Positions 1 to 39,853 of a stretch of DNA of 64,000 nucleotides are shown piece by piece; position 1 is the stretch's first letter; each line of letters begins with the position of its first letter. Below the pieces are notes generated by a model. The model worked only from the letters and a program-made list of their open reading frames with translations, did not search any database and had not been told where the DNA came from. The DNA lies in assembly GCA_963702895.1 (NCBI GenBank), contig OY969767.1, positions 768,001-832,000 of the forward strand, in the 5' to 3' direction. The DNA is from an uncultured Elusimicrobia bacterium. GTDB lineage: Bacteria > Elusimicrobiota > Elusimicrobia > 2-01-FULL-59-12. The translations under genes were made by a program, and so were the position numbers.

Positions 1-3000
1 GACTCCTCCGGCAGGCCGCACCAGCTCCTGCGACGCTACCAGACCCAGCGGGCGCTCTCGGATGATCCCGGCAGGAAATACTGGGTGCCGGTGGAAGTGA
101 CGGACGTGCTCAAGGACGACTGGTCGCGATTGGAGTTCTACAACGCGCGCGGAAATCTTGTGGAGCTTTACGAGCCGTCCGCGTCGGACAAGCACAGCCG
201 GGACGGGATCCATTGGACCAGAGTCGAACGGGACCGGCAGGGCCGGGAAACAAGCCGTGACGTGTACTACTCCGCTTCCGGGGCGATGCCGCGCGTCGCC
301 AGGGTGGATGACCAGGGCCGCCCGGTCTACGAACCGGCTGAGTTGGCCCGGCTTGAACACATGCTGCATGCCAGCATCGGGGGCACCTATCAGGGAGCGC
401 CCATCCAGCGTTACAACCCGGCGGACGGCAGCGCCAACGTGATCATGGAGGACCTCGTTCGCCATCAGACGAGCCTGGAGCGTTACAGCGTGAACGGGCG
501 CCTGAGCGAGCGCACGGTCGGCCGGGAACAGACCTTCTTCGATGCCTCCAAGCCGGTGGAATGGCCCACCCACAAGATCGATACGGTGAGCGGAGAACGT
601 TTGGAAGAGTACGTGGTCATCAACGATCCCAAGGAGATGGAGCGTTACGGGCGTCCGGCCAAAGCTGGCATCGATTACAACATCGTCTCCTCTGGCGTCA
701 TCCTCGTTCGTAGCCACGTGACGCTCTCCAGCAGGGTCGAGATCTATGAACTGGCCCGCGTGACGAGACGCGTGGCCACCCAAGGCACCCTGACGGAGAT
801 CACCAATATCACCTACAGGCCAAACGGAATCGAAGAAGCTTACGATGTCACCGTTTCCAAAGACGGCCGGACCATTGAGCGCCGCCACGTCGAAGACCTG
901 TGGTGGGAGCCCGGAACGGGCATCGGCCATGGGACCGAGACGAAACTGGATACCGGCGAGAAAGTATCCCGCTTGGTTGACATAAACGGTCATCTTTTGG
1001 CCGAATTCTCGGTTGGCCGGGACTTTGGCACGCTCACTTTCGTAGACCGCGATCCGAAAACAAACCATGAATCCGGCCGCCGCACCTACGGCCTGCATCG
1101 CAACGCTGTGAATCTCGACCCCGTTGATCGGGAAAATCTCACGCTGGCCAAGCTCATTGCGCTCTCGAGCAACCCGAGCCTCGCGCAGCTGCGCTCCGGC
1201 TCAGGACCCCCGGTTTATCACGTGGATGGAACGGTGACGGTGCCGATGTGGGATGTTCAAGTGGATGAGAATGGAAACGCGGTTGGAAAAGAATTTCGAG
1301 TCGATCATCGCGACAGCCTGGGACGGCTCCTGCGGCAGGAACGCGGCGACTTCACCATCGAATTTGATCCTGCCCAGCCGGTGGAAGTGCCCCTCTTCAA
1401 ATACCGCACCGCGGATCCCAAGAAGACCCCGGTGGAAACCTATGAGGTCCGTCTCCATCGCACCTTGCTGGGGCGTCTCACGCTGGGGCTTTTCGGACGG
1501 ATCACTGGAACGACGGTCGTTACACGCGACCTGCTCCACAACCAGACCTACGAAGATTCGTATGACCTTTTCGATCCTTACCAAGATCGGCACACCGTTC
1601 GCGACGTCGCTCACGGTGTCACCGGTGTTTCGACTCCTGTCTTCAATTCCTTCGGTCTCCGGACCGGCACCCTCACGGTGTACACCTCACCGGAAGGCCA
1701 GGAAACCACCGAAACACAGATCGAGCGGGGCGGCACCCAAGAGGACCCCTCCACCATCACGCGCGAGGACAATCTCACAACAGGCCTGAGCCTCCGCCGG
1801 CAGACCGATGCCAGCGGCAGGGTGGTGAAGGAAGCCACAGTCAACGCGAAATTCAATACGGTCACCTTCGTCGATTACGACAGCGCGGGCGAGGAAGCCG
1901 CCCGGCGCACCTATCCTGTGCCCGGCGGCATGAGCATAGACCCCGAAGCGTTTGCGCGGCTGTCGGAGCGCGAGGTTGTCTTCGCCCTGCTGGGTCCGGA
2001 GCGCGGCGCCTTGGCGATGGCGGACCGCGTGTCTCGTCCGACCCTGATCCGTTCCGAGGCGCCGCGCTACCGCGCCGACGGGTCCTTTGACCAGGTGCAG
2101 TACGATGCGGTCTATGATGAAAACGGCGAGTTTATGGGGGAAATCAGGAAGGAACAAGTTCGCAGCCGCCTCGGACGACTGGTCACGGAAAAGGTCGGTG
2201 TCCCGGCGACAGGCATTTACGTCACGACCTACAACGCCCGCTGGTCCGTCGCCTTCCCTGTCGAGAAAACCGCAGACGGCCATCCGATGGAACGCTACAC
2301 CCTGCGCCTCGGCCCCGGGATCCCCGGCTTCGACTGGACCGCTGCCATCCTGGATGTCCGGAACACCCGCGACAACAAACAATGGACGGACACCTACGAC
2401 GTCTTTGTTGGCTTGGTGGAGCATGCGATTGCCGGCACCCAGAATGGCGCCTCCGCGACCGAGCGCACCCGCCCGCTGCGCAACGCCCTTGGGATCGTGA
2501 TTGGCGGCGAGACCTTCTTTGAATACGAGAACGGCGAAAGCATCAAGATTTACGACGACCGAAACGTCGGTGTCAACGCCGAAAGGCAGGAAGTGACCGT
2601 TCGGCGGCGGATGACCGCTCCCGCCTCCGTCCGCGGCGAACGTCTGCGCGAAATTACTCCGTATGACGCCTTGATCCTCCAGGCGGCCGGGGACACCGGT
2701 GTTTCCGAACGGTTACTGAAGTCAATCATGCAGGTCGAATCCAGTTTCATAGAGACCGCCCAGTCCGAGAAGGGGGCCAAGGGTCTGATGCAGCTGCATC
2801 TGCCGGAGGGGGATGCGGAAGCCGCGGAATTCTGGCGGACCAACTACGGCGTGAGCGATCCATTTAATCCTGAACAAAACGTCCGAGCCGGGAGCCGGTA
2901 TTTTAGAGACCTACTGGAGCGTTTCAACGGCGATACGGATAAGGCATTGGCGGCCTACAACGCTGGGCCGGGCGCGGTGGAACGGGCGGCGAAAAAATGG

Positions 3001-9000: not shown

Positions 9001-12000
9001 ACCTTCCCTCGGCGTTACTTCAATCCCGTGAGGCTGCCGTTGTTCTGGAAGTCCGGAGTGCGGTGGGCCCTTACGGCCGGGGCCTCGATCTTCTTTTCCT
9101 TGTGGTCGGTGGGACAACCGTTCCTGGGAATCGCCAGCCCTTTTGGGCGCCTGTTCAGCGATGTTCTGGGCGTGGTCGCGGTACGGCACGCCCGCTGGCT
9201 GCTCGTTCCTCTGTTTGATTCTGGCAGCGGTTGGACCATTGGATCACTTCTCATCATTGGCTTGGTGGCGATGCCTCTCGCCTGCGCGGTGTCCTACTTA
9301 TTGTGGAGGCTGGTGTTGCGCTTCGAAGCGCCGATCAACCGGGGAGTCGCCGGTTGGGTGGCGCGGCACGGCCGGGGTCGTCCCGGCCTGATCAATGAAA
9401 TGCTGGAACAGCACATTGACCCGCGGTTCCGCTGGGCCGGTGAGGGTCTCTCAACAGAGGAATGGAACAAACTCTCGCCGGAATCCCAGGAGTGGATCAG
9501 GCAGAGCATCCGAGGCCTGAGGTTCTGGATTGGAAGACTTCTGCCGGCTTTCGCGATCACCATGCTCACGCTGATGAGCATTTACGCGGTACCGGCCGTC
9601 GAAGCGCAGACCGGATTGGGCCCGGTCCTGTTCAACATCTTTGCGATGGGCGGGATGTATGTGCTTTGGGCTTTGTTCACGTATGTGCTGGTGCGCGCTT
9701 TCGGCATGATGGGACAAGCTTTTGTCGCTGCCCGCAGCCACCGCGAGGTGGGCCGGTTCACGGTGCCGACGCGCTGGGAATTGCAGCAATCCTTGAATCT
9801 GTTCCGCAGCCGGGCCGGGATTACGACACCGCAGCCGGCCTCCTTCTGGCGGAACCTGGCGCGTCCGCTGACCCTCGCGGTAATCGTCCTGGGTCTGCTG
9901 GGGATGTTGGCGGCGCTGTTCGGATTCCCGGGGACCGATTGGCTGAACACGGTCCTTTGGCAATGGATTTCCCAGGCCGCGACGTTCCAGGGACAACCGC
10001 TTGCGACAGCGGGATTCGGCCAGCTTCCGGACATCACCGTAACCGTACGCGGGCTGCTGGCTTCCGCCAGCGGGCTGGTGGCGGCCATGGGTGCCGTGTA
10101 TGCGTGGGCGAGACACCGGGAAATGTCCAAACGCTTCGGTTTCTACAACTACCAACTGGCCGGGATGTCGGAAGAGCGCACCCGGGCGCGCTCGATCAAG
10201 CTTTACGCGCGGGTGGTGGACAAGCTCCTCGAGAAATCGCGCATCAGCGCGGAGCAGCACCGGATGCTTCGTCAATACGTTGTCCCGCGGGGTCTGACCG
10301 AAGAAGCGGAGGAAGAATTGAAGTTCTTCATGAACACCTTCTTTACCAAGCGTGATGGCAAAGAAGGTGTTCCCGAAGCCGCACTCCCCTGGGAAGCCGC
10401 GCCGCATCTGGTGGACCAGCTGCAAAGCTACACGGAAATTGTGAGTCCCACGATCGCTGGTCTGACGGCGCTGGTTGGCTACAACGCGGGCGCTCCGCTT
10501 GATCCGCAGAAAAATCCAGCTCCGGGGGCGCGTGCCTATGCGCAGGAAATCCAGAATTTCGCCATCAAGATTTACCCGGCGGACTGGCGCCATTTTGTGG
10601 ACCGAATGCGCCAGATCAAAGGGCGGTGGCTGGAAGACGTGCAAAGGCAGCATGGAGTGGGCAGCCCCGAGGCTTTGGAAGCGGAGCGGAAAATTGACGC
10701 CGACATCGCGGCCCTGGCCAGCCTCGATGAGAACACCGTTTTAATGGTGCTCAATGACCCTGCCCACCTCACCCCCGATGAGGAGAAACTCCAGAGGGCC
10801 TTCGCCCTGGCGGGGTATCCCCATGTGGCGTTGATGCATGCGGGCAACGCGCCTCTGATAGAGGAAATAATTCTCTGGACCACCCCCAAAATGGCGGTGG
10901 TGCGGCGCGCGGTGGAATCGGCGATGCTGACTCGTCAGGTCATGCGGGAATGGGCCGAAGAGGAGCTGGCCGACACGCCGGAAGCCGTGGCTTTGCGCAG
11001 CCGATTTGGCCCCGATTTGGATATCGAAGGCCGTGAAAATCCGGAGCGGGCAGCGCTGCGCAGAAAACTTCGAATTTGGGTGGATGCTATGACCGACCAG
11101 GGACGAAAAGCCAAACTCCTGGATGAATTGAACCGCACGGGATGGATGACGCTCACGTGGCTGACCGATACCGAATTTAATTCCCTTCTGGCGATGCGAG
11201 ATCCCCAAGCGCCTGGACGGCCGCTGTTGAGCAACGATGAAGATCGCTATCTCCGGCTCGATCGAACCATAAACCAAGTTCTGGAAGAGCGCTACCAGAT
11301 GAATTACAACGCCGGCCGCGTCGACCGAGATTGGTTAAGAGAAACCGCGCAACGGCCGGATTACCAAAGGACCGTCCAATACAATGGCTTGTCCGAAGGC
11401 GGCTTGACCCAGAATTACACCTGGGATCAGCTCAATGATTACCATTTTGAGCATCCGGACCGGATTGATGGGTTGACGCTCTTGGAAAGCCTGATGGCGG
11501 CTTACCCAGGAGAATGGGTACGGTTTGTGGATTGGTTGAGGGACCGTTCGCCCAATGCGGATGTGAGAAGAGAGGTCGGTGAAAAACGCGACACGTTGGC
11601 GCATGGAGATCTCGACGGCATTTCCCAGGCGCTTCGCGATCAATTCACGCTCTGGGCAAATGTGCATCCCGGGTTTCATATTTCCACCGATTATATGGGC
11701 AATGATCCCACGGATTGGGCGCGTTTGATGGGGACGGGGATGCTCCGGTTCAATGAAAGCCTGGCTCCGTATAAAGCGTCCTTGTGGACAACGACCGCAC
11801 GCTACCTTACCTCGGCCGTCTTCTACAACGACGCCACGCAGCACCGGGAATTTGACCGTACACTGCTCATCCCCAATGTGATGTCGGAATGGAACAAACC
11901 TCAGTACGGATTCATGTTGATGCCGATGGACGTTGCAGCGCGGGATCTGACGCCCGTCAAAGCCAGTCAGTCTATTGGCGAGAGGACTTGGACGTTCATG

Positions 12001-20720: not shown

Positions 20721-20772
20721 TCCCCCTTGAGTCCGGGGGACTGTCCCTTCCTTTAAATTTAGAGGAAGGGGA
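20721..20772 (-). repeat. TCCC/GGGACAGTCCC/GGGA double-hairpin mini-element (reverse orientation)
   Basis: TCCC...GGGACTGTCCC...GGGA lies inside the ccccggc/gccgggg stem after ORF1. Confidence 0.6.
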
Positions 20773-20880
20773 CGTTAGCCGGGGATCTTCGGTTGTATGT
20801 ACCTCCCTCGCCCGCGGGACGCGGGAGAGGGAACGAAAAATGTGAGGATGACATCTTGTGATGACGTGTCAGGAGATCCA

Positions 20881-29800: not shown

Positions 29801-29835
29801 CCGTTGAAAATAAAAGAATATGGAGTTCCGCCTGA
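20881..29835 (+). CDS. Giant modular exported/membrane protein (ORF2), about 2,980 aa
   Basis: TTG at 20881 follows AGGAGA; signal peptide MKTLHSFIALVLSVVLIAQPAAA; the ORF track uses an upstream ATG at 20797. Confidence 0.88.
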   Translation: MKTLHSFIALVLSVVLIAQPAAASWPPHSQASGSQTVLSESSPQERVTQEALLLGGYWFRQAITTTQTAFRLRRAVPRSLSPVFLRTVRFTLGIAAAALSGGALGLAYIDDVYDNPTPRTPAPQTPNFYKNWLEFVGDNSPDWQRFNLLGAVVLQVSAKNDGGIFTFDQIKQDTLDSFENHLLPANEEKIQSLLSKMVELHLVRQDAEGRYAPLVEPEVIAVKTENVAFIQRQLEHALRKGARDGVKAETHLYQLLEHYARIVERWKLDPLEARWPVLKAVARLSQADQTHLLKFLDAHADQLQHWPLMGSMLLMLRREFPPDWLLKHAPHMVGRNHYIVGSEGWYAAGGLGRVLQYNAAAIQHLAQGHMPVITIEPYYSHWLDGQRKLHQGLRYGPGGPLITPVEGLSEVPVMSFEVEVNHRQVLAEVFEGTNEYGVKVYLIRDRQINPANGETESLITRVVYNYRETDKLASDEAISTAEEFTEFMSRASLKLIQSLEEKKQEAMLAAGDTSYKAPVISVNDGQFGPFALFKRDLDRVWKALSGAVISFVTHTYRNRMWFRGVDSSSMGAAFADFVQCVASIHRQEKAAPADPDIRVVANTNGDNRALTRRLFLKLWTQLFGHAHHEHPSDEQIRKLKYQAKKQMRFDRTLLESLGIFRADEYVLDPDKLVLVFTGRLDPVKAGRERALTDDNIRLLVSLGVQVVIYGNIQATTKEMYDDLVRLAKEVNQVPEGTDPKTRGKLIVRSGWGQPEQIELLAAADVLVVDSDRGTEAAGISETDGMATGCIIVGPAGLEGILQKQGLPINRAEAYSGNTAIPEESTQVGYAKVYQWLLELYEKDPVRFASYQAASVRLSRILEAELPAAENLRQYDRAVQRKDDPLYLLTEIRQRLTEADKYLWSYRVKTELLNFLASSLISHSIAFEREDIKTSIIRLENGEVLLLAVDRTDTRPSPWGEKKFGRLLFNASVDAKQLQELLGVAELDPEKEFIVADAATGEIYGQHKIQKILEQEFKVGVPVGKFQMLQFLPVTAPTAEGETVAEKSLRTVPASWSGNALYSALLAIAGYFSGIEALESAALASFIAGSVLFVEEYLYMKRRGLDRLGWRDAKGAIGTVPGMSPFRARRVAWHEKLVHAVPGGAAADFFVAPFADWAALALAALGFTVDSEVWTRVRQFRGLLAHEWGHYGAAKRHGLAVGTSLGTLFREAWQGEGRVTVPEMDTSQYLGRTDRVYHRKALRVAQGGIRANFNAAVRDSVIAAAGSFYAWHSLSGLTAAVITAALAAWMAYSIDSNRLLTLNELHRLEVNSDTRRMQYHLRELHPEPPARNWFQRWIIFPAIIVHERGHYHASRRLGLKPKGWLIPTLRYLWTGKGMPFVTHRQTALMDITTIGEAIAAQRDLLEVYRAGAIANFDAGWKVILPMAALLAGTLSIGGPIGSALTGSVLAGSIWFLWNNGHGFIRSAGVPWDRGDPFGSQMGQAAIQILSDIEARERKKLGEAGREAPIPMRPHLDELFVRLFRFTGPAPIPTSAEIRAQSSGKTRGSAPDDRQPAAAARSGAGKDWESQKQDFLRRIAAAPTEEDLKHVYRAMAVEFHPDKNLGDPRGAEEIFKQLCNAIARRVKPGSEDESPEEVQGSDNLEWLKQWLDGELRGSGFRVVRWPEDLGPETSAPYARDNQRVVGGAIRALKERSNGPGARPGRADHDQRLSRGDSTLASAISAEEALATLPGSGADRGGAESVPGDPLGSARFTAEKLHKARTLRVGEIVHLRRGDQLFRTVVLGAMTAAHPTLELIKVPAPFGVVGDMLFPEPLPAEFFDLDPAEIASVAIDLEREPIRQSKKVITIGDQLEVTYDYGRRARVTVVAYNDGMFVCIGHQRLWDRPDHYGGYGMSFGEQYAREELERSGGNLRKAPLQPVDEPSLPAEHPGQPAQANVSETHTLSFGTLTVHSARETVPGLWRIEFSVEGGDVRANHGVVLSMDPGRFRIEPVVSRKVLERNFDPRNGEPLVQTPDLRMGYTVRDMAEGRAPEEDLIRPAGARPDREALVLAVPATDNILSRNALLGIDGKLVARPKQAVGLTESRIQPPMGWHSMLSLDPNKPVVFKLRLSLNNVTFVDEDGATEATEFSKVPFDPPLVIRDEQRRQVDKLPVRNFVSGQRVVEGGRNVAGELRRDPETMSTGDSVNWGNVDEPMAFSLNGYTRAGRLGVLQVWGNPDPEQNGGKAELNIKQAAEVALAFGFEDAILGAASGGVYRAERSPQAQATEFIAEGAPGKRNSRLDQHLRVRGKPGDPGLRLGAAFLMIYQRAGLNKGATRHGIETGSGQTAPLRRGLPAVSHRPAEKSLATVKAAWAGSAAYTAVALAVGIFFRHGEWAAAAALFLIASSLLFGEEHRFMSRTGLDRLGQKTADGATWIAPELGRGFRARRVAWHEKLVHAVPGGAAADFFVAPFADWLALALAALGFEVRMALAELRETLEAEQPAVAPIPIEAADQADSLVVGTIEARWPLEEQKELLARLVPQAAKQDVVVVLQEPLAEGLPMKVTLTRREWTANASDPFSTLMQLLESQEKAVDGTGSGFFKIYDDGQSLETVRLPVPGVAGVEAEYTVNLLRANRPGGGGRSTECTLCGGVIKERFPNELGMRMGPLTVYFNPFSFWPSRHDQDPLTSACHVVAVWGDEHLSQTRLAEIRSLRALREEWMRLNESPRLRNQTKFRMFLNGWNYDPERPENSGGATQDHIHAHWARKPFASEACPVASRALPSGVRVGLVNLLPDADGQKSFDHVALSLEADREHLSELDEEIARALKLITGEKDSFNVLYFEVPAEGSRPSSIRALVTGRNRGVPMTGHGAYGAPQVLGLNQVIGDRPGHFYDLSPEQQVSLEALPLGKVLEWVRLERAQGRLRVRSPEDLQNRYRQALRETAYSRGQVENLMRRIIDAAESGWRNKIGKFMSSLVLPIWRQWNALRRDKTVENKRIWSSA
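21890..23520 (+). other. ORF2 domain: GT-B alpha-glucan enzyme (GT5 glycogen synthase/GT35 phosphorylase-like)
   Basis: AAGGLGRV, VISVNDGQ, FVTHTY, NTNGD, LDPDKLVLVFTGRL, AADVLV..S...TEAAGISE. Confidence 0.7.
24253..24378 (+). repeat. Coding repeat copy 2
   Basis: Near-identical to 28153-28278 (exactly 3,900 bp downstream) and to 20491-20609. Confidence 0.95.
24420..25320 (+). other. ORF2 domain: two tandem membrane metallopeptidase (M50/site-2 protease-like) units
   Basis: LAHEWGHYGAAKRHGL...VAQGGIRANF and IVHERGHYHASRRLGL...VYRAGAIANF, each followed by TM helices. Confidence 0.6.
25615..25740 (+). other. ORF2 domain: J-domain (DnaJ-like)
   Basis: EEDLKHVYRAMAVEFHPDKN...AEEIFKQL with an intact HPD motif. 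Confidence 0.85.
26790..27800 (+). other. ORF2 domain: divergent phosphodiester glycosidase (NAGPA/DUF2233-like)
   Basis: VLSMDPGRFRIEP, TVRDMA, LGIDGKLV, VVEGG, GYTRAGRLGVLQVWG, LNIKQAAEVALAFGFEDAIL; lacks the canonical LDGGGS. Confidence 0.45.
28153..28278 (+). repeat. Coding repeat copy 3
   Basis: Near-identical to 24253-24378. Confidence 0.95.
28760..29460 (+). other. ORF2 domain: HIT-superfamily nucleotide-sugar phosphorylase/transferase-like
   Basis: CTLC, YFNPF, HVVAV...EHLSQ, FLNG, GGATQDHIHAH (HxHxH triad at 29101-29115). Confidence 0.65.
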
Positions 29836-30004
29836 TGCCCCGTCTAAGAGGTCGCAAGAGGGGCCAGGGGGAAATGTAGGTCTATCGGGCAAGGAAATTT
29901 AGCCGAAGGTTTGATTGTTTTAGAGCGAAATAGAGGTCACAATATTGAGAGCCGTAGGTCGCAAACATCACGTTTGTGCATAGCCGAGGAGGCATTGGAA
30001 TTCC

Positions 30005-33000
30005 ATGTTTACTAACAACATTGTCAACAAACTGAAAAAATCTTTAGCTTCGCTTTTAGCGGGGCTTATGCTGCTTCCGTCCTTGCCGGCCTCGTCCAAT
30101 GCCTTCGGACCATCGGTCGCAAACCCCTTTGCTTCGCTCACGCCGCCTCCCCAGGTGGCCACGCTGGTTTCGACCTCCGCCTCCAAGAAGTCCGCCGAGC
30201 GCCAACCCCAAGTCATTCTCATTCAAGATTTGCACTTCAACTACTCCGTGCAGCGCAACATTGCGCGGCTGTTGGATTTTCTGGGCCAGCAAGGCGTGGT
30301 CGGATCGCGCATTGCTGTGGAAGGCGCGGTCGGCGAAGTCGACAACAGCCTTTTGACGGAGGTCAAGAACCTCAAAGTCCGCGGGGAACTGGCGGACTTC
30401 CTGATGCACAACGGCGAGCTCACGGGCTCGCAGTACTACTCGGTGATGTCTGGCCAGCCGAAGATTTTGCAGGGTGTGGAAGATCCCGCCTTCTTCCAGG
30501 CCAACCGTGATGTCTTCCGTCTCTCTTATGGCAACCGGCGACAGGCTTCTCGACAGATTTCCCAGCTTCGAGCGCGCCTGGAAACGCTCGTGCCGACGGT
30601 CTGCTCGGGGTCCGTCCGCCGCTTGCAGAGCGCGGGGAAACGCTTTGAAGCCGGCAGACTCTCCATGGAGAGGTATTGGAACCGGCTGCACACCTTGGGC
30701 CAGAGCGCCAATGTCCCGCTGCCCGTGCCGCTCGAGAATTATCTGCTGGGGACGCCGGAGCGCCGCAGCGAGCTTTTGCTCACGAGTGACCTCTACCAGG
30801 CGCTCGGCGACTACGCGCTCGCCGTCCAGGCCGCGCTCGCCAAGACCCCGGTGGAGAAGAACCTTATCCGTCTGATCAACGAATTTACCCTGGTCGAACG
30901 CGCCCTGAACCAGCACACCACCCTGGAAGAAATCCGGCACGTCGTGGGACGGATGGACCAGACGGCGGCGCTGGTGCAGCTCCTGGCGAAAGACCTGAAG
31001 GCAGACCTTGGTTTTGACGTTGAACGGTTCAAGGAAGCCCTGAGGGCCAGCGTTGATTTCTATGTCGCCGCCCTGATGCGCAACGAGCCGATGCTGGAGA
31101 ATACGCTTGCGCTTGTACGGCAGAGCAACCCAACAACGGAGCTATCGAACAGCGGAGCAACCAAACGGCGGATCAGTCGTCCGGCGGGCCCGAAGTCTGG
31201 CAGCTCTGACTCACGGTTGTTCCGCCCCACGTCAGCTCCGCCGTCTGGTAGGTCCATCGTTCTTGTTGTGGGCGGCTTCCACACCGACTACTTCACGCGC
31301 GAGCTCTCCCGCCGCGGTGTCTCCTACGCCGTCTACGCGCCGCAGGTGGACTCACACACTCCTGCCGATGATGCGCTCTATGTTAAGCGCTTCATGGGTG
31401 AGCGTATGACGGTCAATGAAGCCACTGCCTGGATCAAAGCCCACGGTGGAATTCGTGGCTCTCCGCGTGCGTATCAAGGAGCGGGGTGGGTTCCGCCGCT
31501 TCGTGGCATTCAGGGGTGGCTGACTCCACTTGCGAGGGAATCTGAGAGAATCGGATCGTTATACGGGCTTGCGCCAACTCGATTCCTTACAAGACTACGA
31601 GATCAAAAACGATCATTAGATTTCGCGAAACGCCAACAGGTTCGAACAGGCACTCTAGACGATCTCGCTGATCCCGCCTTCGAAGATGATGAACTTGTCC
31701 CAGGTGGTATTGAACTGAAATCCGTGTTGGCTCTCCTGCTGAGACTCAGCAGCGAGTCGGATAGTTTCCCCACTTTCCCTATCAAGGAAATGGAGTTTAC
31801 TGCGGACGAAGAATTGGTTGTTGTGCGGAATCAGCCGCAAATCGAGAGAGTAAGTGTTGAGACCTGGAGAACCAAAGATCGAAGCAAATTTATTGCGATC
31901 GTTCCACGCGAAGGGAATGAGACAACCTTTAAGGCCATTATTCATGTTGACGCTATCAGGCACAACCCGACTTTCAAGGCCAACCCCTATATCTTTTGGA
32001 CAAAGTTTGTGCTTCATGAAACGGCAGAGTTTGGGATGAATGGTCAAAGCGTCAGCCATGAAGTCCTGGAAGAGAACGGGTTGGATGCCGATGGCGATTC
32101 CAACATCACGCTCATGCAGCTCTATAAAAAGTTCTCTCAATTTATCCCGACGATCGAACAAGAACTGATTAATCATCATGGACGTCGTCAGGAAGCTGAA
32201 TTCGCTATGAAGGCTTGGAAGTATATTCGCGAACAACGCCAAGAAGCCCCCGCTGATCCCGAGAAGCTCATAGAAACCAACGGGCCGCTAGACGAGCCTG
32301 GTCGCCCAGCAAGACCCGATCTTCATATGGGAAATCTGACTCCTGAGGATATTAAGGTGATTAGTTCCTTCGCGCGGCGTAAGGGTCTAGTACCACAGAC
32401 CGGTTTTCGCCCTGCGAGATTACAGGACTTAGAACCCATAGACCCCACTCGTTCTCCTGACGAAGCGGTTCGAGCTCATTTGAATGGATTTGTGATTACC
32501 CAGTTCTTCGATGGCGGAAATGCAAGTCGTATGAAAAAAGGGTTAGCAAGTCGAGGGTTGAACAACGTCTTAACAGCAACAGAAAACCTAGCATTACATT
32601 TCCTGCCGCCCGGAAAAGTCTTGGATGGAGTTCCAGATCCAATTTACTGGGGGGCCAGAACTCTCTTGCGCCTCAATCAATCGGTTCGGAAGTTGGCAAG
32701 AAATAACCCTAAATACGGTGTTTCGGAGCTGCAGGCCTTAAAAAATCAGAGAATCATTCTCCATGTGAATGATCAAATGTTGCCATATATCGAGCAAGAT
32801 TTACTTGACCACTATTTCTATGGGTTTGAACCAGAGAACATCTATATCCTGGTCAGTCGTACATATAACAAGCTGGTCTACGATGCTAAGTTAAAGTTGT
32901 GGGTCCAAGGAAGAATGAATGAAGACCCTGACTCGCAGTCTGTGCTGGGCAACGGCACCCCCATCGAAATGTTGCTAGAGGACAGACAAGTTTATAATGC

Positions 33001-34594
33001 CTCCAGCCTCACGGGGCCGTTCCATATTCTGGAACCCAGCCTGTTAAGCCTCCTAAGGGCGCTCTATGAACAGGACCGTTACTCCGTTCAAGGATTAGTC
33101 CCTTATATTCGACAGGTCCGGATCAACAACATAAAGGCATGGGATCCTCAAGTCATAGAATTGGACCGTTCCGCTTTTATCATCGATCGAATTCGGCATG
33201 GAATAGGAAATGTCATAGAAATGGTGGAGAACCCTCCTCTGTATGATTCCGAAGATGAAAAACAAAAGGCTTTGCGTGGAGAATTGAAGCCTCAAAAAGG
33301 CGGTCTCCCTCAAGTCGTGATTGGCAAAGACCAGACCTATCTGATGGGGCCAGAAAAGCTTTCTTTGGCTGATCAAAAGAGCGATGCGGTGCAAACTGCC
33401 GGAGAAAAGGAGGCTTTGTCCCGAGAGGAACCTCCTATGCTCAATCTGATGGGGGGTGCTATGGGTTTGGAAGCACTCGCCGTAGCGCTTCCTAAACGAT
33501 TGGAGCCGGGATTTGTCCCTGGAAATGATCAGAGAGGAAATCTTCAATACATAGAAGGGCAATATGTCGTCTTGGAAATGACCCTGGATCTTGGGTTCCG
33601 CAGTTGCTTCTTTTATGTGCCAGGCGCTAAGCTGGAAGATTGGAAGGAAAGAAAATTGAGTCAGGACGACAAGGCTCGTGAAAAACTCGTCTTGATGAAC
33701 AGCGACAAGAAATTCCTCACACTGGCTGCTTATTATGGTTTTAATCCAGCACCCATTGCACAGCGTCACGGAGTGACTATCGAAGATTTAGTAAAGGAGC
33801 TGAGCGAATTCGAATCGAATGAGTACGGAATGGTCGATGTGAGATCTTCCAGAAGCCTGCTGGAAATAAGAGGCCGAGTTGTCGCCGCAGAGGCTATTTT
33901 GAAAGGAAGCACTTCGCCTTCTCCAGTCAACGGCGGTGCCCTGCGCCCCACCGAGGCGCACTGGTTTGCCGGGATCGCAGGAGCAGGCTTAGTCCTGGGA
34001 GCTCTGGTTCAGTTGCCTGTGATGCTCCTCGGCATCTTGGGCGCGTTTGCGGTCGCTGCAGCGGGTCAAGAAATCGCAGTTGTCTCGCGCGCTGTGGCAA
34101 CGCGTGATATCACGGTCCTCACATCTCAGCATCCCATCGCCTGGTATGACTTCACCACCCAGACCGAAGATGTTGAATCGGTACCGGCTATTGCGCGCGT
34201 CTTCGCTCACGCCCATGAGATGGCCAGGGCCTTGACCCAATCACGCGGTGCTGTGGCTCCTCGCTTGGTCGCTCCCTTGACGCTGCCTCTGGCGGTTTTG
34301 GATTACGCCGTGGCGGGTGTCTCTCATGGGATCAACCTGGCGCTTTCGAAGCTGACCCGTGGCCAGATCCCGGTTCCCGATCTGCAAATGTTGAAGAAGA
34401 TGAGGGACGAGCTGCCCAAAATTGAGCATCAGCTCGCTCCCACACGTCAAGCTTTAGCCCCACCTGCCAGCGGCGCATGGAAGAAGGTCTGGGCGGGCAT
34501 TCAAACACGGGCCGGCGCCGTCTGGAAGAACTCCAACGCCCGAACGGAAGCCGCTGAACTCGCCGCGCGAAGGGCTCTAACCACCGCCGCCTAA
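30005..34594 (+). CDS. Large exported protein (ORF3): conserved N-terminal domain, UDP-sugar pyrophosphorylase-like cargo, C-terminal TM hairpin
   Basis: AGGAGG upstream and a signal peptide; IQDLH/AVEGA/GELTG/GVED/VGGFHT domain shared with ORF4; cargo at about 32480-33700 with DGGNASRM, YGFEPENI, LGNG, INN, QKGG. Confidence 0.88.
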   Translation: MFTNNIVNKLKKSLASLLAGLMLLPSLPASSNAFGPSVANPFASLTPPPQVATLVSTSASKKSAERQPQVILIQDLHFNYSVQRNIARLLDFLGQQGVVGSRIAVEGAVGEVDNSLLTEVKNLKVRGELADFLMHNGELTGSQYYSVMSGQPKILQGVEDPAFFQANRDVFRLSYGNRRQASRQISQLRARLETLVPTVCSGSVRRLQSAGKRFEAGRLSMERYWNRLHTLGQSANVPLPVPLENYLLGTPERRSELLLTSDLYQALGDYALAVQAALAKTPVEKNLIRLINEFTLVERALNQHTTLEEIRHVVGRMDQTAALVQLLAKDLKADLGFDVERFKEALRASVDFYVAALMRNEPMLENTLALVRQSNPTTELSNSGATKRRISRPAGPKSGSSDSRLFRPTSAPPSGRSIVLVVGGFHTDYFTRELSRRGVSYAVYAPQVDSHTPADDALYVKRFMGERMTVNEATAWIKAHGGIRGSPRAYQGAGWVPPLRGIQGWLTPLARESERIGSLYGLAPTRFLTRLRDQKRSLDFAKRQQVRTGTLDDLADPAFEDDELVPGGIELKSVLALLLRLSSESDSFPTFPIKEMEFTADEELVVVRNQPQIERVSVETWRTKDRSKFIAIVPREGNETTFKAIIHVDAIRHNPTFKANPYIFWTKFVLHETAEFGMNGQSVSHEVLEENGLDADGDSNITLMQLYKKFSQFIPTIEQELINHHGRRQEAEFAMKAWKYIREQRQEAPADPEKLIETNGPLDEPGRPARPDLHMGNLTPEDIKVISSFARRKGLVPQTGFRPARLQDLEPIDPTRSPDEAVRAHLNGFVITQFFDGGNASRMKKGLASRGLNNVLTATENLALHFLPPGKVLDGVPDPIYWGARTLLRLNQSVRKLARNNPKYGVSELQALKNQRIILHVNDQMLPYIEQDLLDHYFYGFEPENIYILVSRTYNKLVYDAKLKLWVQGRMNEDPDSQSVLGNGTPIEMLLEDRQVYNASSLTGPFHILEPSLLSLLRALYEQDRYSVQGLVPYIRQVRINNIKAWDPQVIELDRSAFIIDRIRHGIGNVIEMVENPPLYDSEDEKQKALRGELKPQKGGLPQVVIGKDQTYLMGPEKLSLADQKSDAVQTAGEKEALSREEPPMLNLMGGAMGLEALAVALPKRLEPGFVPGNDQRGNLQYIEGQYVVLEMTLDLGFRSCFFYVPGAKLEDWKERKLSQDDKAREKLVLMNSDKKFLTLAAYYGFNPAPIAQRHGVTIEDLVKELSEFESNEYGMVDVRSSRSLLEIRGRVVAAEAILKGSTSPSPVNGGALRPTEAHWFAGIAGAGLVLGALVQLPVMLLGILGAFAVAAAGQEIAVVSRAVATRDITVLTSQHPIAWYDFTTQTEDVESVPAIARVFAHAHEMARALTQSRGAVAPRLVAPLTLPLAVLDYAVAGVSHGINLALSKLTRGQIPVPDLQMLKKMRDELPKIEHQLAPTRQALAPPASGAWKKVWAGIQTRAGAVWKNSNARTEAAELAARRALTTAA

Positions 34595-34780
34595 AGCGAC
34601 CGTGGCAGAGTCAATAAAGGGCCCTCCAGTCATATGGGCCTATTGGTCCTGAATAATTAGCTTTTCGCTCTATTCATGCAAAGCTCTGATTACCCTATAC
34701 TTTTCTATGCAAGCTCCCGTTCAGAAGTTGCGACGATGATCAATCGCCGGAACGATGGCGCATCTCAAAAGGAGAATCAC

Positions 34781-37700
34781 ATGGCACGTCCCTTCTTCAA
34801 CAAAGCCCAGCGCGAACGCTTCACCAAGGCCCTCAGCCTTACGCTTTGCCTTGCTTTCATTTTCAGCTCCTCGGTGACCCCGGCCGCAGCAAGCGTGGAA
34901 AACCCCGCCGCACAGGCGGAGTCCGCCCGCGTCGCCCAGTTGACGCCCCCCAGCGAGCTGGGGACCGTGGTGGACGCGCACATTGCGTCCCAAGATCTGA
35001 GTTCTCCGCTCGTCATCCATATCCAGGATCTGCACGCCAATTTCGATGTTCAAACCAAGATCGCCCGGCTCATCGAGTTCTACGATTCGCACCTCCCTCC
35101 CTATAAGGTAGCGGTGGAAGGCGCGGAAGGCCCGATCACCGCGACCCAATTGGGCAAAGTGTCTGACCGCGCTTTTAAGACCAAGGTCTGTGACCGCCTC
35201 ATGAAAAACGCCGAAATCACGGGAACGGAGTACTTCTCGATCGTGAATGGCAAACCCGACCTGCTGTGGGGCGTGGAAGACCATCGCTACCATGAGGCCA
35301 ACATTGCTCTATTCCGGTCTACCTATAAGGGTAAGCGCGAACTCGCTCGCGCCCTGGGCAAGCTCCAGGCGGAATTTGCCCCTATTAAACAGAAGGCCTA
35401 TTCTCGATCCATGCGCAGGCTGGACCGAAAGGCCGCAGCGTACGAGTCTGGAAAAATCGATATTGTGAAATACATCCGTGTTCTGGTGAAACAGGCTTCC
35501 AAGCAGGGTATCGATATCGCCGGTCGCTATCCCGAGATTGCCAAGTGGACCGGATACGCCAAAGCCGATCAATACGCGAACATGGACAAGCTCATGACTG
35601 AGCAAGCGGCCTTGTTGACAGAAGTCCAAACCAGCCTTGCTAAGACAGACCTGCAACGTAACATCGCCTCAACATCCGTTGAGCTGGATGTGCTTCGCCG
35701 TATGTTGACGGAAGAAGTCACAACGGAAGAGGTCCGGCATCTGGCTCCAGAGCTGTCACAGGTGGCCGGCCGGGCGCAGTTTCTCATGGATCAAGCTGGG
35801 GTTTCTTATGAAAAGCAGGGCGCGGCGGATCTCGTGAGCGCCAGCCTCGACTTTTATGCCGTGGCCTTGCTCCGCGATCAACATCTAACGGAAAATGCCT
35901 TAAAACTCATTCAAAGCCCGACCTCTAAAACCCACCATGTAATTTTAGTCGCCGGTGGGTTTCATACGCCGGGGATCACGAAGATCCTGAATCAAAAAGG
36001 TGTTTCCTACATCACCGTCGCGCCCAACGTCACAACCCACACTGCCAGGGACAAACAGCTTTATGTTGCCCGACTCATGGGACGGCATGGGGATCCGGAC
36101 GATATGGCTGCTGGAAATGACATGCTTTCGTGGATGCTCAATACGCCATTCGGTGAGTGGGTCGTGGCCAGGACAGCGCTTCGAACGGCACAGGCTGACA
36201 AAAACCCTCAGATGGCGCGTGAAGTAACGGATGTTTTCGGAGCTCAGACGGCCCTTGCCGTTAATCCGCCTCCCCGTGGGAAACTGCGCGACTACACGGG
36301 CGCGGGTAACACCTCGATTCATATAGCGCTCGATCGTGCAAGAGGTTTATTCTACAGTGACAAATCTGCGGCCGCGTTGCTCCTCTGGGAGCTCAGAGAC
36401 GACATTGCTCTGGCAATGAAATCGAATGATATCGTCCCTTTAATGGATAAATGGAATGAACGGTATCCCCTGAGCAGTGTCAGTGACCCAGGCGTTGATC
36501 TAATGCTGTCAGACCTTCCCCGGGCGTTCGAGGATGCCAACCTACTATTGAGTAGTCTCCCACCCGAGATTGTTGGAGAGGCTGCTTTGGCCATCGCAGC
36601 GCGTGTCCAAGCTGCTGCCGCAGCCAAACAACGAGAAGGAGCGGTGGCGAAACGCGTGACGGCAACAGTCCTGGAATACAATGTGGGTCATTTGTTCGGA
36701 GATGGAACCTTTACGCTCACCGACGCTGTGCTCGATGCCGCGCGTAAAGTTCTGCAGGAACTCAAAGACGCGGGAGTGATCAAAGACTTTGTGGTGAATG
36801 GGTTTGGGCAGGATCTTCACATGCAAATTAATACCTATGGCCGAGGAACGCAAGACCTAACAGTCCAAAGCGTGGGACTCAAAGCGGCACAAGCGGCTGT
36901 TCGAGCGGGTAAGGAGGCGGGCTTGCTGAGGCCGGTTACTTTGGACGATATTACGGCTGACTTCTTTGATCTGAATGCCGCGATGCAGGTTGAAGCCCTG
37001 TTGACACGTCATTCGGAGTTGCCTTTTACGGAACGTGGAGCCGAGCCGATCTCCGTTTCAAAGGCGATCGGAGGCGGAATTGGGTTCTTTAACCGCGCTC
37101 TGGTGAACCTCTATTTTTCCGAGAACGTGTCGGGACCTCGACTGGAAGGCGCCGGGGTCTTTTTTACCGTGGAAAGCGCTGCGGATATACGCGCGGGCAA
37201 CAAGAACCGCAAAGTCTATGTGTTTGGTGATACGCCTTCGTGGCCGGAAGACGGCATTGATTTAGTCCGCCCCAACAGCGACCGGCCTCTCCATGTGCGG
37301 AAAGATCAAATCGGGACGTTTAAGCAGATGTCCGTTCTGATTGGCGATCCTACGACGTGGGTTGTCACGGCCGTCTACGCGGCGCAGGGACGCATGGCGG
37401 AAAGCAAAGAGACAAGAGTGGAACCCATAGCGGTCGTTGGGGTGGAGCGTGTTTACCCGACCAACACGGCTATTCCAACGAGCCCGGTATTGATTGTTCG
37501 CGGACAAGGCGGCGCTCCGGCCATTGGGGAAACTCATATGGCCACGTCAAAGTTTTATTTTGGTCCTGGTGGTGACCACGAAGGGTATTACACGGGATTA
37601 CTTCCTGTAACGCTTGAACAGGCACGCTCGATGCCAGATACCCACATGGTGACCAAAGTCGCCACGTATCACTATCAATCGAAGAAAAAAGGTGAGATGC

Positions 37701-39853
37701 CTCACGGGGACATTTATGACCAAATGGCCGCCGACACAAAGGAGACGGTCGCCCTCCAAACCTCGGCCATGGGGCTCGTGCGCGAAGCAGCGGAGGTCGA
37801 CAACATGGTCCCCTTTATGACGACGGATGAGGCCGAGCGCCAAATGGCTCCTGTGCGCACACGCGTGGCCGATCGTTTCGAACCAGTGCCGGATTATAAA
37901 AAGGGCGAAAAGGATCCTAAAGTTGATAGCGCCAATGCCTTATCGAAGGGTCGCACGCTCTCCGATATCAAAGCGGATGCGGGCGGAAAAGTTGGGCATA
38001 CCGTGGTTCCGAGCTACTTTATTCCTGTGGCCGAAGCCAGTCTCCAGGCCGCCAAGGAAAGCGGTCTTATCGACGATTACAAGGTGTTCTATGCCGGTGA
38101 CGATCTGCACTTGCTCATCACGCATAATCACGGGATCGATAGCAGCATCGTTCATACATTAGCCTGGGAAACATTCATGCGGATTATTTGGGTGGCGAAA
38201 TCCTTGGAGGATAAATGGTATGGATTGGGTCAGGATTTCCCTAATATGCGCGGCCGCCCTGTACACCAAGACGCTAAACTCAATGATGCTTTCATGGCTC
38301 TCTTGAAGGAGAAGCTTCCTCGGGAGCAGTTGATGCAATGGGGTGTCTTGGAATACGCTTACAAGAACCAGACGCCCGTGCAAGGTGAAAGCCCGTTCTC
38401 GGGTAATGTGCAAGGTCAGGGACCTGGATTTGCCGAAATCAATATTCCCGATGAAGGTCCCGTGACCTTCGGTATTTTCGCCGCCGATAAAGCAGGTCCG
38501 GATGCTTTCAATGTTCCTTTGTGGTATGCCCTGCGCAAAGCGGCAGAAGAAGGAACCCTCTCAAGACAATTCGGCGATGTCATTGCCGAAGTCTGGGATA
38601 TTCATCATGCTCAACGCGGAGACTTTAGCTATGCTAACGAAAAGGCGACGCTTCAGGCCTTATTGGCTCCGACGCATCTGAACAGCGTGAAGCGGATCTG
38701 GCAGGCGGGTGCGTCACGGATCCTCGCGGCGCTCTCTGTTGAAAAGCTCGGAATCATCGCAGGGGGCGAATACGTTGGGAAGGACGACCCCGTCTTGATA
38801 GCGACGCCGGAGATCATTAAGGGGTTCTTTCAATTCGCGCGCGACCACTTCTACATGACCCAGGGCAACGCGCGCGGTTCGCATAACGCAGCTCCGAAGC
38901 CCCGCTCATTAAGAGATGGAATCGCAACCGTGAATAGCAAGCCGGTTCAGCTGGGACTGATGGTGCAAGTTGATGGAAAGAACGGTTTGATTGTCAAAGA
39001 TATGTTTGATGACCCAACCTTTCAGAACGCGTATGACCGAGTGGACCGGATCAATAAAGAAGTCTGGAATGCACAAGGCCTCTCCGGCGGGCTCGTCAGC
39101 GTTCCGGCAGCCCAGGTGGAAGCAAACTACCCACTCAGAAAAGAATTGGAGAAGATCACAGGCGAGAATTCACCACATGCAATCGCAACAACCGTGACGA
39201 CACGAGAGGTCTATAACCAGATCGCGGCCGCCAACCGGCCGATCCGGTCGCTGGCCTTCTTAGCTCTTGGCGTCGCCATGACCTTTTTCGGTCCGGTGAT
39301 GGCCGTTGTCGGGTCGATCTACGCGGCCTATCACCTGGTGGCGTTCGGTGCGGGAATGTTTCAAACTCACGGCAATCTCTTCGCCCGCGCGGCGACGCAC
39401 GACAACTGGAAGAACGTGAGTTTCGCGCTTTTTGGCGAGGAAGCGGCGCATGAAGGCCTTTCGCGGATTCCAATCGTCGGCGCCTGGTTGTCCGGCGATT
39501 TGAGAAGCACGGTCCCCGCCAACCGGCGAGTCCTCGGAGCCTTGGCCGGGGCTTGGGATGAAACGTTTGGCGAAGTGTTCAGTAACGCCGTAGCGCCGTT
39601 GCTGATGCTCACGGCCGCTCTAAGCGCTCTCCTCGTGCGGCCGATCGTCAACCGGGGTCTGGTGCCCGACGCCCGGATCAATTCAGGTCTGGTGGGCGGC
39701 ATCGAAGCTCTCAGTCAAGCAAAGGCAATGCTAATGGACCTCACACAGCTTACGGAATGGGCCATTCAGTCCCTCAGGAACGCGGGTGTAAGTGCGAGAG
39801 AAATTGAAGCGATCCAGCAACGTGGCCGACAGGCGATTCTTCGGGCGGCCTGA
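34781..39853 (+). CDS. Large exported protein (ORF4): conserved N-terminal domain plus tandem class V FBP aldolase/phosphatase domains
   Basis: AAGGAG before ATG 34781 and a signal peptide ending PAAA; intact-looking copy at about 37955-39150 (IKADAGGKVGH, GDDLHL, YGLGQD, FSGNV, ADK, EYVGKDDP, RGSH, DMFDDP); degenerate copy at about 36656-37860. Confidence 0.9.
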   Translation: MARPFFNKAQRERFTKALSLTLCLAFIFSSSVTPAAASVENPAAQAESARVAQLTPPSELGTVVDAHIASQDLSSPLVIHIQDLHANFDVQTKIARLIEFYDSHLPPYKVAVEGAEGPITATQLGKVSDRAFKTKVCDRLMKNAEITGTEYFSIVNGKPDLLWGVEDHRYHEANIALFRSTYKGKRELARALGKLQAEFAPIKQKAYSRSMRRLDRKAAAYESGKIDIVKYIRVLVKQASKQGIDIAGRYPEIAKWTGYAKADQYANMDKLMTEQAALLTEVQTSLAKTDLQRNIASTSVELDVLRRMLTEEVTTEEVRHLAPELSQVAGRAQFLMDQAGVSYEKQGAADLVSASLDFYAVALLRDQHLTENALKLIQSPTSKTHHVILVAGGFHTPGITKILNQKGVSYITVAPNVTTHTARDKQLYVARLMGRHGDPDDMAAGNDMLSWMLNTPFGEWVVARTALRTAQADKNPQMAREVTDVFGAQTALAVNPPPRGKLRDYTGAGNTSIHIALDRARGLFYSDKSAAALLLWELRDDIALAMKSNDIVPLMDKWNERYPLSSVSDPGVDLMLSDLPRAFEDANLLLSSLPPEIVGEAALAIAARVQAAAAAKQREGAVAKRVTATVLEYNVGHLFGDGTFTLTDAVLDAARKVLQELKDAGVIKDFVVNGFGQDLHMQINTYGRGTQDLTVQSVGLKAAQAAVRAGKEAGLLRPVTLDDITADFFDLNAAMQVEALLTRHSELPFTERGAEPISVSKAIGGGIGFFNRALVNLYFSENVSGPRLEGAGVFFTVESAADIRAGNKNRKVYVFGDTPSWPEDGIDLVRPNSDRPLHVRKDQIGTFKQMSVLIGDPTTWVVTAVYAAQGRMAESKETRVEPIAVVGVERVYPTNTAIPTSPVLIVRGQGGAPAIGETHMATSKFYFGPGGDHEGYYTGLLPVTLEQARSMPDTHMVTKVATYHYQSKKKGEMPHGDIYDQMAADTKETVALQTSAMGLVREAAEVDNMVPFMTTDEAERQMAPVRTRVADRFEPVPDYKKGEKDPKVDSANALSKGRTLSDIKADAGGKVGHTVVPSYFIPVAEASLQAAKESGLIDDYKVFYAGDDLHLLITHNHGIDSSIVHTLAWETFMRIIWVAKSLEDKWYGLGQDFPNMRGRPVHQDAKLNDAFMALLKEKLPREQLMQWGVLEYAYKNQTPVQGESPFSGNVQGQGPGFAEINIPDEGPVTFGIFAADKAGPDAFNVPLWYALRKAAEEGTLSRQFGDVIAEVWDIHHAQRGDFSYANEKATLQALLAPTHLNSVKRIWQAGASRILAALSVEKLGIIAGGEYVGKDDPVLIATPEIIKGFFQFARDHFYMTQGNARGSHNAAPKPRSLRDGIATVNSKPVQLGLMVQVDGKNGLIVKDMFDDPTFQNAYDRVDRINKEVWNAQGLSGGLVSVPAAQVEANYPLRKELEKITGENSPHAIATTVTTREVYNQIAAANRPIRSLAFLALGVAMTFFGPVMAVVGSIYAAYHLVAFGAGMFQTHGNLFARAATHDNWKNVSFALFGEEAAHEGLSRIPIVGAWLSGDLRSTVPANRRVLGALAGAWDETFGEVFSNAVAPLLMLTAALSALLVRPIVNRGLVPDARINSGLVGGIEALSQAKAMLMDLTQLTEWAIQSLRNAGVSAREIEAIQQRGRQAILRAA

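Follow-up and report, generated by a model that had tools for sequence, protein, structure and literature searches.

Giant multi-enzyme proteins with a GT48-like module encoded by a four-gene locus of an uncultured Elusimicrobia bacterium

The four genes and the GT48-like module

The window analysed here is a stretch of 64,000 nucleotides from an uncultured Elusimicrobia bacterium whose genome (G000) consists of a single contig of 2.72 Mb that is 98% complete; the window corresponds to G000:C1:768001-832000. Positions 1-39853 are filled by four long co-directional open reading frames (ORFs) of the + strand, ORF1 to ORF4, with intergenic gaps of 111, 169 and 81 bp that leave no room for small genes. 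A first-pass annotation of the window had reported four giant ORFs, and these are real, but its view of ORF1 comprised only the C-terminal half of the gene, which is cut by the window. The whole ORF1 gene (G000:C1:750022-788685) starts 18 kb upstream and encodes 12,887 amino acids (aa). In its database form, ORF4 starts at Met36 and has 1690 aa. Genomes of family relatives are designated G301, G302, G304, G064, G307 and G308, and two homologous proteins P0020 and P0025.

ORF1 carries a module that is probably related to the beta-1,3-glucan synthases of fungi and plants (glycosyltransferase family GT48, Fks1/callose synthase); the evidence for this comes from homologs and from a syntenic ortholog. 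The earlier GT48-like call held by this route, although the window sequence itself has no direct match to PF02364 in Pfam or, by phmmer, to the Protein Data Bank (PDB). A word-index search for GT48 limited to 1456-4155 aa failed, a single-protein GT48 search of 300 other genomes of the phylum gave no matches, and a genome contig scan with the window protein resulted in no detection. When 1.84 billion representatives were searched with ORF1 aa 3420-4400 (window numbering), 17 matches were obtained; the ten whose taxa were first looked up comprised five from Omnitrophota, one from Planctomycetota and four without a taxon. The homolog P0020 matches PF02364 with E 5e-20 and Fks1 with E 3.5e-10, and another homolog from the GT48 search matches PF02364 at 1e-6. 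A profile of 15 GT48-like sequences compared with the PDB returned only Fks1/Gsc2 (6/6 rows), at weak E-values of 0.3-0.5. The syntenic ortholog of G302 lies over the PF02364 cut-off (58.4 bits vs 37.2, E 6e-16).

The GT-A core of the module is located at approximately 10288-12630 and carries an added helical-hairpin insert of about 100 aa. Roles of the Fks1 residues D1102, E1221/D1222 and K1246 have been described (PMC10499315). The equivalents of D1102 and E1221/D1222 in ORF1 are D3944 and E4138/D4139 (window numbering), which are colinear in the alignments of P0020 with Fks1 and with ORF1 and in an alignment of 17 rows.

Searches with hidden Markov models (HMMs) upheld part of the other domain calls (Table 1). 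SLT, methyltransferase, GT5, DnaJ and two FBPase_3 copies, one of them intact, were recovered; the calls of UDPGP, HIT and GT35 found no HMM or PDB match, and the aldolase barrel was reduced to a weak match that is conserved in G301. The GT5+GT1/GlgA region of ORF1 was matched with E 3e-24, and by TIGR02095 with 7e-43, below the cut-off. Peptidoglycan-binding, TolC-like and barrel-like regions called by eye were all HMM-negative, as were a segment of ORF1 upstream of the window likened by eye to outer-membrane channel/barrel proteins and a phosphodiester glycosidase (NAGPA)-like region seen by eye in ORF2 (26719-27816). By analogy, the beta-rich region of ORF1 is a candidate for the hollow beta-helix tube of the Omnitrophota giants. 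The twin-arginine (Tat) motif of ORF1 is the only one over the cut-off in G000 and lies just before the GH-A-like domain in both G000 and G301. The M50-like motif of ORF2 is duplicated nearby and is flanked by a membrane module, of which ORF2 has two copies and the end of ORF1 has one. The HIT-like region of ORF2 is 47% identical in a relative, and its histidine triad and CxxC are kept in G301.

The UDPGP-like domain of ORF3 was negative with Pfam, NCBIfam and the PDB. Among its neighbours in the ESM Atlas, ranks 2, 3, 8 and 10 are PF01704 clusters with values of 0.86-0.88, under the line of 0.9 set for a lead, and its identity is accordingly treated as a language-model lead. By contrast, copy 2 of the fructose bisphosphate (FBP) aldolase/phosphatase of ORF4 aligns to PDB 1UMG/3T2B with E 2e-38. 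In its alignment with the archaeal FBP aldolase/phosphatase ST0318, the active-site residues (metal-binding Asp residues, His, Gln, the Schiff-base Lys and Tyr) are identical.

Head, tail, cargo and gene order

A head of approximately 400 aa is common to the N-termini of ORF1, ORF3, ORF4 and two more G000 genes and is absent from ORF2. An AlphaFold model based on a 21-row alignment reached a predicted local distance difference test (pLDDT) score of 87. In a structure comparison with 48,161 chains, the top five were ChaN, BcR136, EreC, BcR135 and HopBA1 (Z 8.9-7.9, root-mean-square deviation 3.8-6.2, 147-182 residues aligned), followed by the next unrelated chain at Z 6.9. Foldseek ranked BcR135 and EreC first, at E 0.01-0.1, and two head homologs match PF04187 with E 2-5e-4; a head profile had no match among the PDB sequences. 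Judged by the fold of the model, the head belongs to the EreA/ChaN/TraB/TIKI superfamily. Residues D30, H32, E60, R312 and H342 are invariant in 21/21 sequences and E97 is present in at least 90%, in agreement with the His, Glu and Arg residues that have been described for TIKI enzymes (PMC6254334). The head occurs in 79/301 genomes of the phylum, mostly in several copies and at the start of long frames, and the taxon labels of its homologs are Elusimicrobia, Endomicrobiales and Omnitrophota. The ORF4 head had no match in a metagenome scan.

The giants also share their last residues. All 16 family giants of G000, including ORF1-4, end in x-Ala (11 AA, 3 SA, 1 TA, 1 NA), compared with a terminal Ala background of 11.9% of 1,413 ORFs; 41/66 homologs, many of them partial, end in Ala. 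Two large genes initially fetched as family candidates, alpha-2-macroglobulin and TamB, which end in Q and K, were dropped before this count. Family giants make up 6% of the G000 genome. Ten of the G000 giants outside the locus (e.g. those at 93226, 222921, 1099294 and 1417356) lack the TIKI head and possess the conserved leader and the x-Ala tail.

Table 1. Genes and modules of the locus (positions in the window)
Feature	Position	Strand	Basis and remarks
ORF1	1..20685	+	Open at 5' end of window; C-terminal 6,894 aa of whole gene
ORF1, part upstream of window			Leader, TIKI-fold head, LysM (Pfam), long helical region, then barrel/channel-like segment
Beta-rich, low-helix region	1..6900	+	Composition; 35% identical in G301, 27% in G064
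SLT lytic transglycosylase	2671..2994	+	PF01464, E 5e-24; also in G301 ortholog
GT48-like module	9055..13896	+	Six predicted helices, GT-A core, then channel helices; homolog-based
Internal Tat signal motif	14290..14346	+	TIGR01409; same place in G301
Clan GH-A-like glycoside hydrolase barrel	14488..15570	+	By eye; two Glu motifs conserved; 47% identity to G301; no HMM or PDB match
Class I S-adenosylmethionine (SAM) methyltransferase	16978..17448	+	HMM, E 1e-11
GT5 glycogen/starch synthase-like, both lobes	17824..19536	+	HMM; 52% identical in G301
Small aldolase-type barrel fragment	19801..20250	+	Weak HxlA match, E 1e-3; conserved in G301
ORF2	20797..29835	+	3012 aa; leader present, TIKI head absent
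GT-B, GT35/GT5-like region	21817..23991	+	By eye; no HMM or PDB match
Membrane zinc-protease-like motif (weak M50)	24424..24498	+	PF02163, E 2e-4; duplicated nearby
J-domain	25624..25740	+	PF00226 (DnaJ), E 6e-8
HIT/GalT-type nucleotide-sugar phosphorylase-like region	28405..29700	+	By eye; no HMM match
ORF3	30005..34594	+	1529 aa; leader, TIKI-fold head, UDPGP-like domain, C-terminal membrane module
TIKI head of ORF3	30140..31414	+	Same head domain as ORF1/ORF4
UDPGP-like domain of ORF3	32312..33874	+	ESM Atlas neighbours; no membrane helix between head and domain
ORF4	34676..39853	+	1725 aa; leader, head, two FBP aldolase/phosphatase copies, C-terminal membrane module
TIKI head of ORF4	34940..36088	+	EreA/ChaN/TIKI fold, long helical insert
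Type V FBP aldolase/phosphatase copy 1	36653..37768	+	FBPase_3, E 8e-8, 3e-7; degenerate
Type V FBP aldolase/phosphatase copy 2	37955..39064	+	FBPase_3; catalytic residues kept; only recognisable FBPase in G000

Other genera of the family also possess the core of ORF1 followed by an ortholog of ORF3, and this core is colinear in G301 and G064. The ORF1 ortholog of G301, split over several frames, is colinear from the head to GT5 and is fused at its end to the C-terminal part of ORF2, continuing into the HIT-like end. It is followed by the ORF3 ortholog, whose cargo is fucose-pyrophosphorylase-like (two colinear weak Pfam matches, E 0.018 and 0.011) and was not detected by the NTP-transferase profile. 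G302 contains a canonical GT48 directly before a full-length ORF3 ortholog, and in G304 a gene with an ORF1/ORF2-like end precedes it. In G064, the head, beta-rich region and GT48 adjoin an AsmA-like gene, dnaX, recR and suf, an arrangement also found in the window; in G307 the locus adjoins the AsmA-like gene. The gene after the GT48 giant of G064 (G064:C1:597177-600125) resembles by eye a NadD/PPAT-like nucleotidyltransferase in place of UDPGP and has no Pfam match.

The ORF4 heads most closely related to that of the window (46-62% identical) are joined to a type V FBPase (once), a class I FBP aldolase (twice) or unannotated cargo (five times). Across the family, 15 of the 31 annotated homologs (66 in total) carry enzymes of glycolysis/gluconeogenesis or sugar-phosphate metabolism, a count that includes two accessions whose meaning we presume. 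Among the other family giants of G000, sugar enzymes are found in only 2/12, the remaining cargo consisting of methyltransferases, receiver, helix-turn-helix (HTH), sigma-70 region 4, PP2C, HD and TPR/HEAT domains or being unrecognisable. Carbohydrate cargo is accordingly common but not the rule. A GlpX-like cargo seen by eye in P0025 was negative in the HMM check and was not used as evidence.

With respect to stand-alone genes, G000 contains a separate glgA, triosephosphate isomerase and two phosphofructokinases, and no class I or GlpX FBPase. GalU and GlgC were not found over the cut-off in 11/11 family genomes. The stand-alone glgA adjoins a gene that by eye is GalT-like (G000:C1:1303548-1306206).

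It could be argued that only the envelope core of ORF1 is functional and that the enzymes are decaying passengers accumulated by gene fusion behind a shared leader and head. Copy 1 of the FBP aldolase/phosphatase and the GT48 of G301 are indeed degenerate, the cargo varies between close relatives and many domains are far from their families. However, copy 2 keeps its catalytic residues, ORF3 is full-length in three other genomes (G302, G304 and G308) and the replaced cargo retains a related reaction in two slots, so that we regard this explanation as the least probable of those considered.

A fifth family giant of 4,068 aa (G000:C1:730476-742682), with a weak ResIII helicase match (E 5e-5), is encoded 7 kb upstream of ORF1; the matching part is possibly a divergent SecA-DEAD domain. 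AAA_14/DUF4143 and AbiEii-like genes are situated between it and ORF1, and a Mutator-family transposase and an AbiEii gene immediately follow ORF4 (window 40009-43218, - strand). The suf cluster is interrupted by a DDE transposase and a polysaccharide deacetylase (window 58756-60102, + strand). An Rfam scan revealed three tRNAs only, all outside the locus. Coding regions of G000 contain low-complexity repeat-like insertions, among them short repeated peptides in the ORF1 head (L001 22-1400) and the N-termini of several large genes, which suggests a coding repeat element. About a dozen large G000 proteins (G000:C1:2189054-2232109, 2328273-2337197 and 1846582-1849896) end in a common C-terminal domain that we take to resemble type IX secretion tails; they represent another class of large exported proteins, distinct from the giants.

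Topology and the side on which the enzymes act

The first-pass annotation considered the giants to be exported proteins with a cytoplasmic type of cargo. The leaders look like Sec signals, but the charge pattern of the later helices points the other way. Lysine and arginine (K/R) residues were counted according to the positive-inside rule in 80 head-bearing proteins, which as kin are not independent. At the first helix after the head (n=60), the head side was richer in K/R in 36 proteins and poorer in 14, with 10 ties (nominal p 0.003), and in 21 first hairpins the K/R density was 0.175 in the flanks vs 0.073 in the loops. Since an exported head would give the opposite charge pattern, the head is placed on the cytoplasmic side. 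In ORF1, the helix alternation predicts an external position for the LysM and GH-A-like domains, the beta-rich/SLT region and aa 1500-4600, and an internal one for the GT48 core, GT5, the barrel, the methyltransferase and the head; each type is then on its usual side. Judged from these charges, the enzymes of the locus most likely face a cytoplasm. As the positive-inside count places the enzymes on the cytoplasmic side, the apparent paradox of exported cytoplasmic cargo may arise from the leader.

A different placement has been suggested for signal-peptide giants, in which export ends in the periplasm or a contact zone, where the proteins process metabolites that leak from breached prey before uptake (West-Roberts et al., 10.1101/2023.11.21.568195; Nielsen and Lui, 10.64898/2026.06.07.730766). 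Sec-like leaders, the transition from head to cargo without an intervening helix in ORF3 and ORF4, the presence of SLT and LysM for an attack on the wall, and published topology predictions that place such enzymes outside are in line with it. Against it, the GT48 core depends on UDP-glucose from the cytoplasm, and by the charge pattern the enzymes share its side of the membrane; cargo of the gluconeogenic and synthase type serves to build up polymer and not to break it down; and a J-domain and sigma-like cargo would be useless outside. We consider periplasmic processing rather improbable.

The reading that we prefer, with about even confidence, is that the locus encodes a polyprotein system for glucan synthesis and export in the producer's own membrane, together with its supply of nucleoside diphosphate (NDP)-sugar. 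ORF4 would convert triose phosphates to fructose 6-phosphate and ORF3 would provide NDP-glucose, which the GT48 module of ORF1 would polymerise, the chain passing through the GT48 helices. In the periplasm, the Tat-led GH-A-like domain may trim or remodel the glucan, while LysM and SLT would hold and open the producer's own wall and the beta-rich tube and barrel-like parts would conduct the polymer outward, as a one-chain counterpart of the cellulose/curdlan synthase-secretion systems. Surplus might be deposited by GT5 in the form of alpha-glucan. The leader would attach the chain to the membrane but leave the head untranslocated, by analogy with the blocking of SecA-dependent export by fast-folding domains (PMC5674894); no Ffh domain was found in G000. 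The TIKI head could act in the cytoplasm as a hydrolase for the cutting or maturation of the chain, and the polymer may help the cell to attach to a host, prey or surface.

Besides the charge counts, the alternation in ORF1 and the lack of Ffh, several observations are counted for own-membrane synthesis. The Tat motif precedes the GH-A-like domain in G000 and G301, 8/10 family relatives have TatC, and membrane proteins that depend on both Sec and Tat are known (PMC5449189, PMC3471235). The conserved gene order and the lack of immunity-like genes indicate that the locus is inherited like a housekeeping machine. Slot replacement probably keeps a related reaction, the ORF3 slot being fucose-pyrophosphorylase-like in G301 and the ORF4 slot a class I aldolase in two relatives. 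A further one is the lack of GalU/GlgC over the cut-off in all 11 family genomes and of class I/GlpX FBPase in G000. The route from triose phosphate to glucan proposed in the first-pass annotation is coherent at the level of the locus, where the GT48 giant is followed by the ORF3 ortholog in G301 and G302 and the ORF4 slot holds an FBPase or a class I aldolase; its UDPGP, HIT and GT35 links remain unconfirmed. The membrane-tethered glucan metabolon that it offered as an alternative is supported by the positive-inside map.

A number of points weigh against this reading. In the GT48-like module, the columns of K1246/R1248 hold Gly and Lys in ORF1, whereas the pair is kept in G302 and P0020; the insert of about 100 aa stands before the Glu-Asp pair; this catalytic pair is deleted in G301; the AlphaFold model of the module has a pLDDT of 45 and was uninformative in Foldseek; and the module is present in only 5/11 family genomes. 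Type V FBPase is found in 1/11 family genomes, G000 alone, and some cargo is redundant because glgA and triosephosphate isomerase exist as stand-alone genes. The tube, barrel, GH-A, UDPGP, HIT and GT35 calls have no HMM or fold support. The helices were called with our own hydrophobicity script and no control set, and the alternation of ORF1 is broken once, the helices at 4639 and 8387 both running in-to-out. K/R residues precede the hydrophobic stretch of the leader in 63/75 cases, as in ordinary Sec signals, and 20/80 head-bearing proteins have no helix after the head; for these two reasons, a hypothetical leader is required that does not export what follows. Finally, tatC is cleanly deleted in G000 (G000:C1:1359145-1359283), with 138 bp left between the flanking genes, which are the neighbours of tatC in the same-genus genome G304.

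In another explanation, the leader exports the giants into the cytoplasm of a host or prey, whose Sec and Tat systems assemble them in the host inner membrane. Host sugar phosphates would be converted to glucan and harvested via the tube, and the TIKI head would free cargo as in MARTX-type carriers. A true Sec leader would then be reconciled with helices that read the head side as in, and an intact Tat motif is retained in G000 although tatC has been deleted. Paralogs carry sigma-70 region 4, HTH, receiver and PP2C domains as well as duplicated housekeeping enzymes. TIKI folds occur in the delivered effectors HopBA1 and RRSP (PMC6254334), Chlamydia secretes glycogen enzymes that sequester host UDP-glucose (PMC4829429), and Omnitrophota giants have been linked to predation (10.1101/2023.11.21.568195). 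On the other hand, a chain of 12,887 aa with about 40 hydrophobic helices must traverse the bacterium's own Sec channel without release into the membrane, no delivery machine has been identified and no host is known, and the locus behaves as a fixed chromosomal machine. As 8/10 family relatives have their own TatC, the loss in G000 may be recent and the motif vestigial, which weakens the absence of tatC as proof of host assembly. Taken together, delivery into a host is a possible but less probable explanation than synthesis in the producer's membrane. Still less probable is a fuller form of it, a host-assembled machine: the host would build the exported chains via its own Sec/Tat, turn its triose phosphates into NDP-glucose and beta-1,3-glucan and pump the polymer through the protein tube to the attached bacterium.

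In the phylum sample, the head and TatC occur together in 38 of the 89 genomes of family f14, with the head alone in 10, TatC alone in 5 and neither in 36, counts in which kinship and genome reduction are uncontrolled. In family f7, TatC is present in 26/27 genomes, without the head.

Relation to known systems

Giant multidomain genes were named in the first-pass annotation as known from lineages such as Omnitrophota, and cargo of this type is already in print for the giants of that phylum. For the Archaeovorins, GT5, methyltransferases, SLT, FBPase and aldolase are listed and doubt about localisation is raised (West-Roberts et al., 10.1101/2023.11.21.568195); Nielsen and Lui (10.64898/2026.06.07.730766) describe a sugar-metabolism module with readings both inside and outside, and such giants are mentioned in PMC12419801. 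The portions of the Omnitrophota giant preprints covered here contain no mention of the TIKI head, the GT48 module, the internal Tat motif or the x-Ala tail, and a term search of the accessible text of 10.64898/2026.06.07.730766 for PF02364, glucan synthase, Tiki and twin-arginine gave 0 matches. Searches of the open-access literature, a coverage outside of which supplementary domain catalogues lie, gave no paper that links GT48 or a TIKI head with these phyla.

In the passages of both preprints consulted, the question of cytoplasmic enzymes in export-signal giants of Omnitrophota/Elusimicrobiota is left unresolved. ORF3 and ORF4 are small complete members, each with leader, head, one enzyme and tail, in which this localisation puzzle can be tested directly. 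The charge-based topology sorts every recognisable ORF1 module to its usual side, and the natural tatC deletion separates own-membrane from host-membrane assembly. The origin of GT48 is touched on as well, since a bacterial relative of this family has conserved surroundings that include substrate supply and candidate export parts.

Several systems share single features with the locus. Polymorphic toxin systems have a toxin domain at the C-terminus and an immunity gene next to it, whereas no toxin family matched ORF1-4 in Pfam and no immunity-like gene lies between the ORFs. The members of the EreA/ChaN/TraB/TIKI superfamily (ChaN 2G5G, EreC 6XCQ, BcR135/136, HopBA1 5T09 and RRSP) have the fold and the invariant His, Glu, Arg and His in common with the heads, which differ by a long helical insert, a fixed N-terminal position on giant proteins and several copies per genome. 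With Fks1/callose synthase (CAZy GT48, PF02364, PDB 7XE4), ORF1 shares the colinear GT-A core and helices and the equivalents of D1102 and E1221/D1222; in contrast to Fks1, it is bacterial, embedded in a polyprotein and below HMM detection, with Gly at K1246 and an extra helical hairpin in the core. The secreted glycogen enzymes of Chlamydia (PMC4829429) resemble the locus in that glucan enzymes possibly act outside the producer on host sugar, but they are single enzymes secreted via type III secretion and not giant membrane polyproteins.

Synthase-dependent exopolysaccharide secretion is exemplified by the BcsA-BcsZ-BcsC cellulose system and by curdlan. The locus displays the same predicted order, from cytoplasmic NDP-sugar supply through an inner-membrane synthase and a periplasmic glycosidase to a trans-envelope conduit, and differs in that one polypeptide is involved, the synthase is of GT48 rather than GT2 and the parts of the conduit are candidates.

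The closest likeness is to the Archaeovorin-type, multi-enzyme metabolic cluster giants, which have a leader and many membrane helices in common with the locus, as well as the cargo types GT5/GT1, methyltransferase, SLT, FBPase and aldolase. A beta-helix tube has been described for the Archaeovorins, whereas the tube of the locus is a candidate from composition alone. Archaeovorins comprise at least 30,000 aa and belong to Omnitrophota; the locus, of the phylum Elusimicrobiota, distributes 1.5-12.9 kaa proteins (longest 12,887 aa) over four genes, and the SecA-DEAD-like or C39/S8 peptidase domains of the Archaeovorins have no Pfam match in ORF1-4. The locus is a variant of these already known giant multi-enzyme proteins, to which it adds as new features the conserved gene order of GT48 plus NDP-sugar enzyme, the exchange of slot contents for related enzymes, a topology derived from charges and the loss of tatC.

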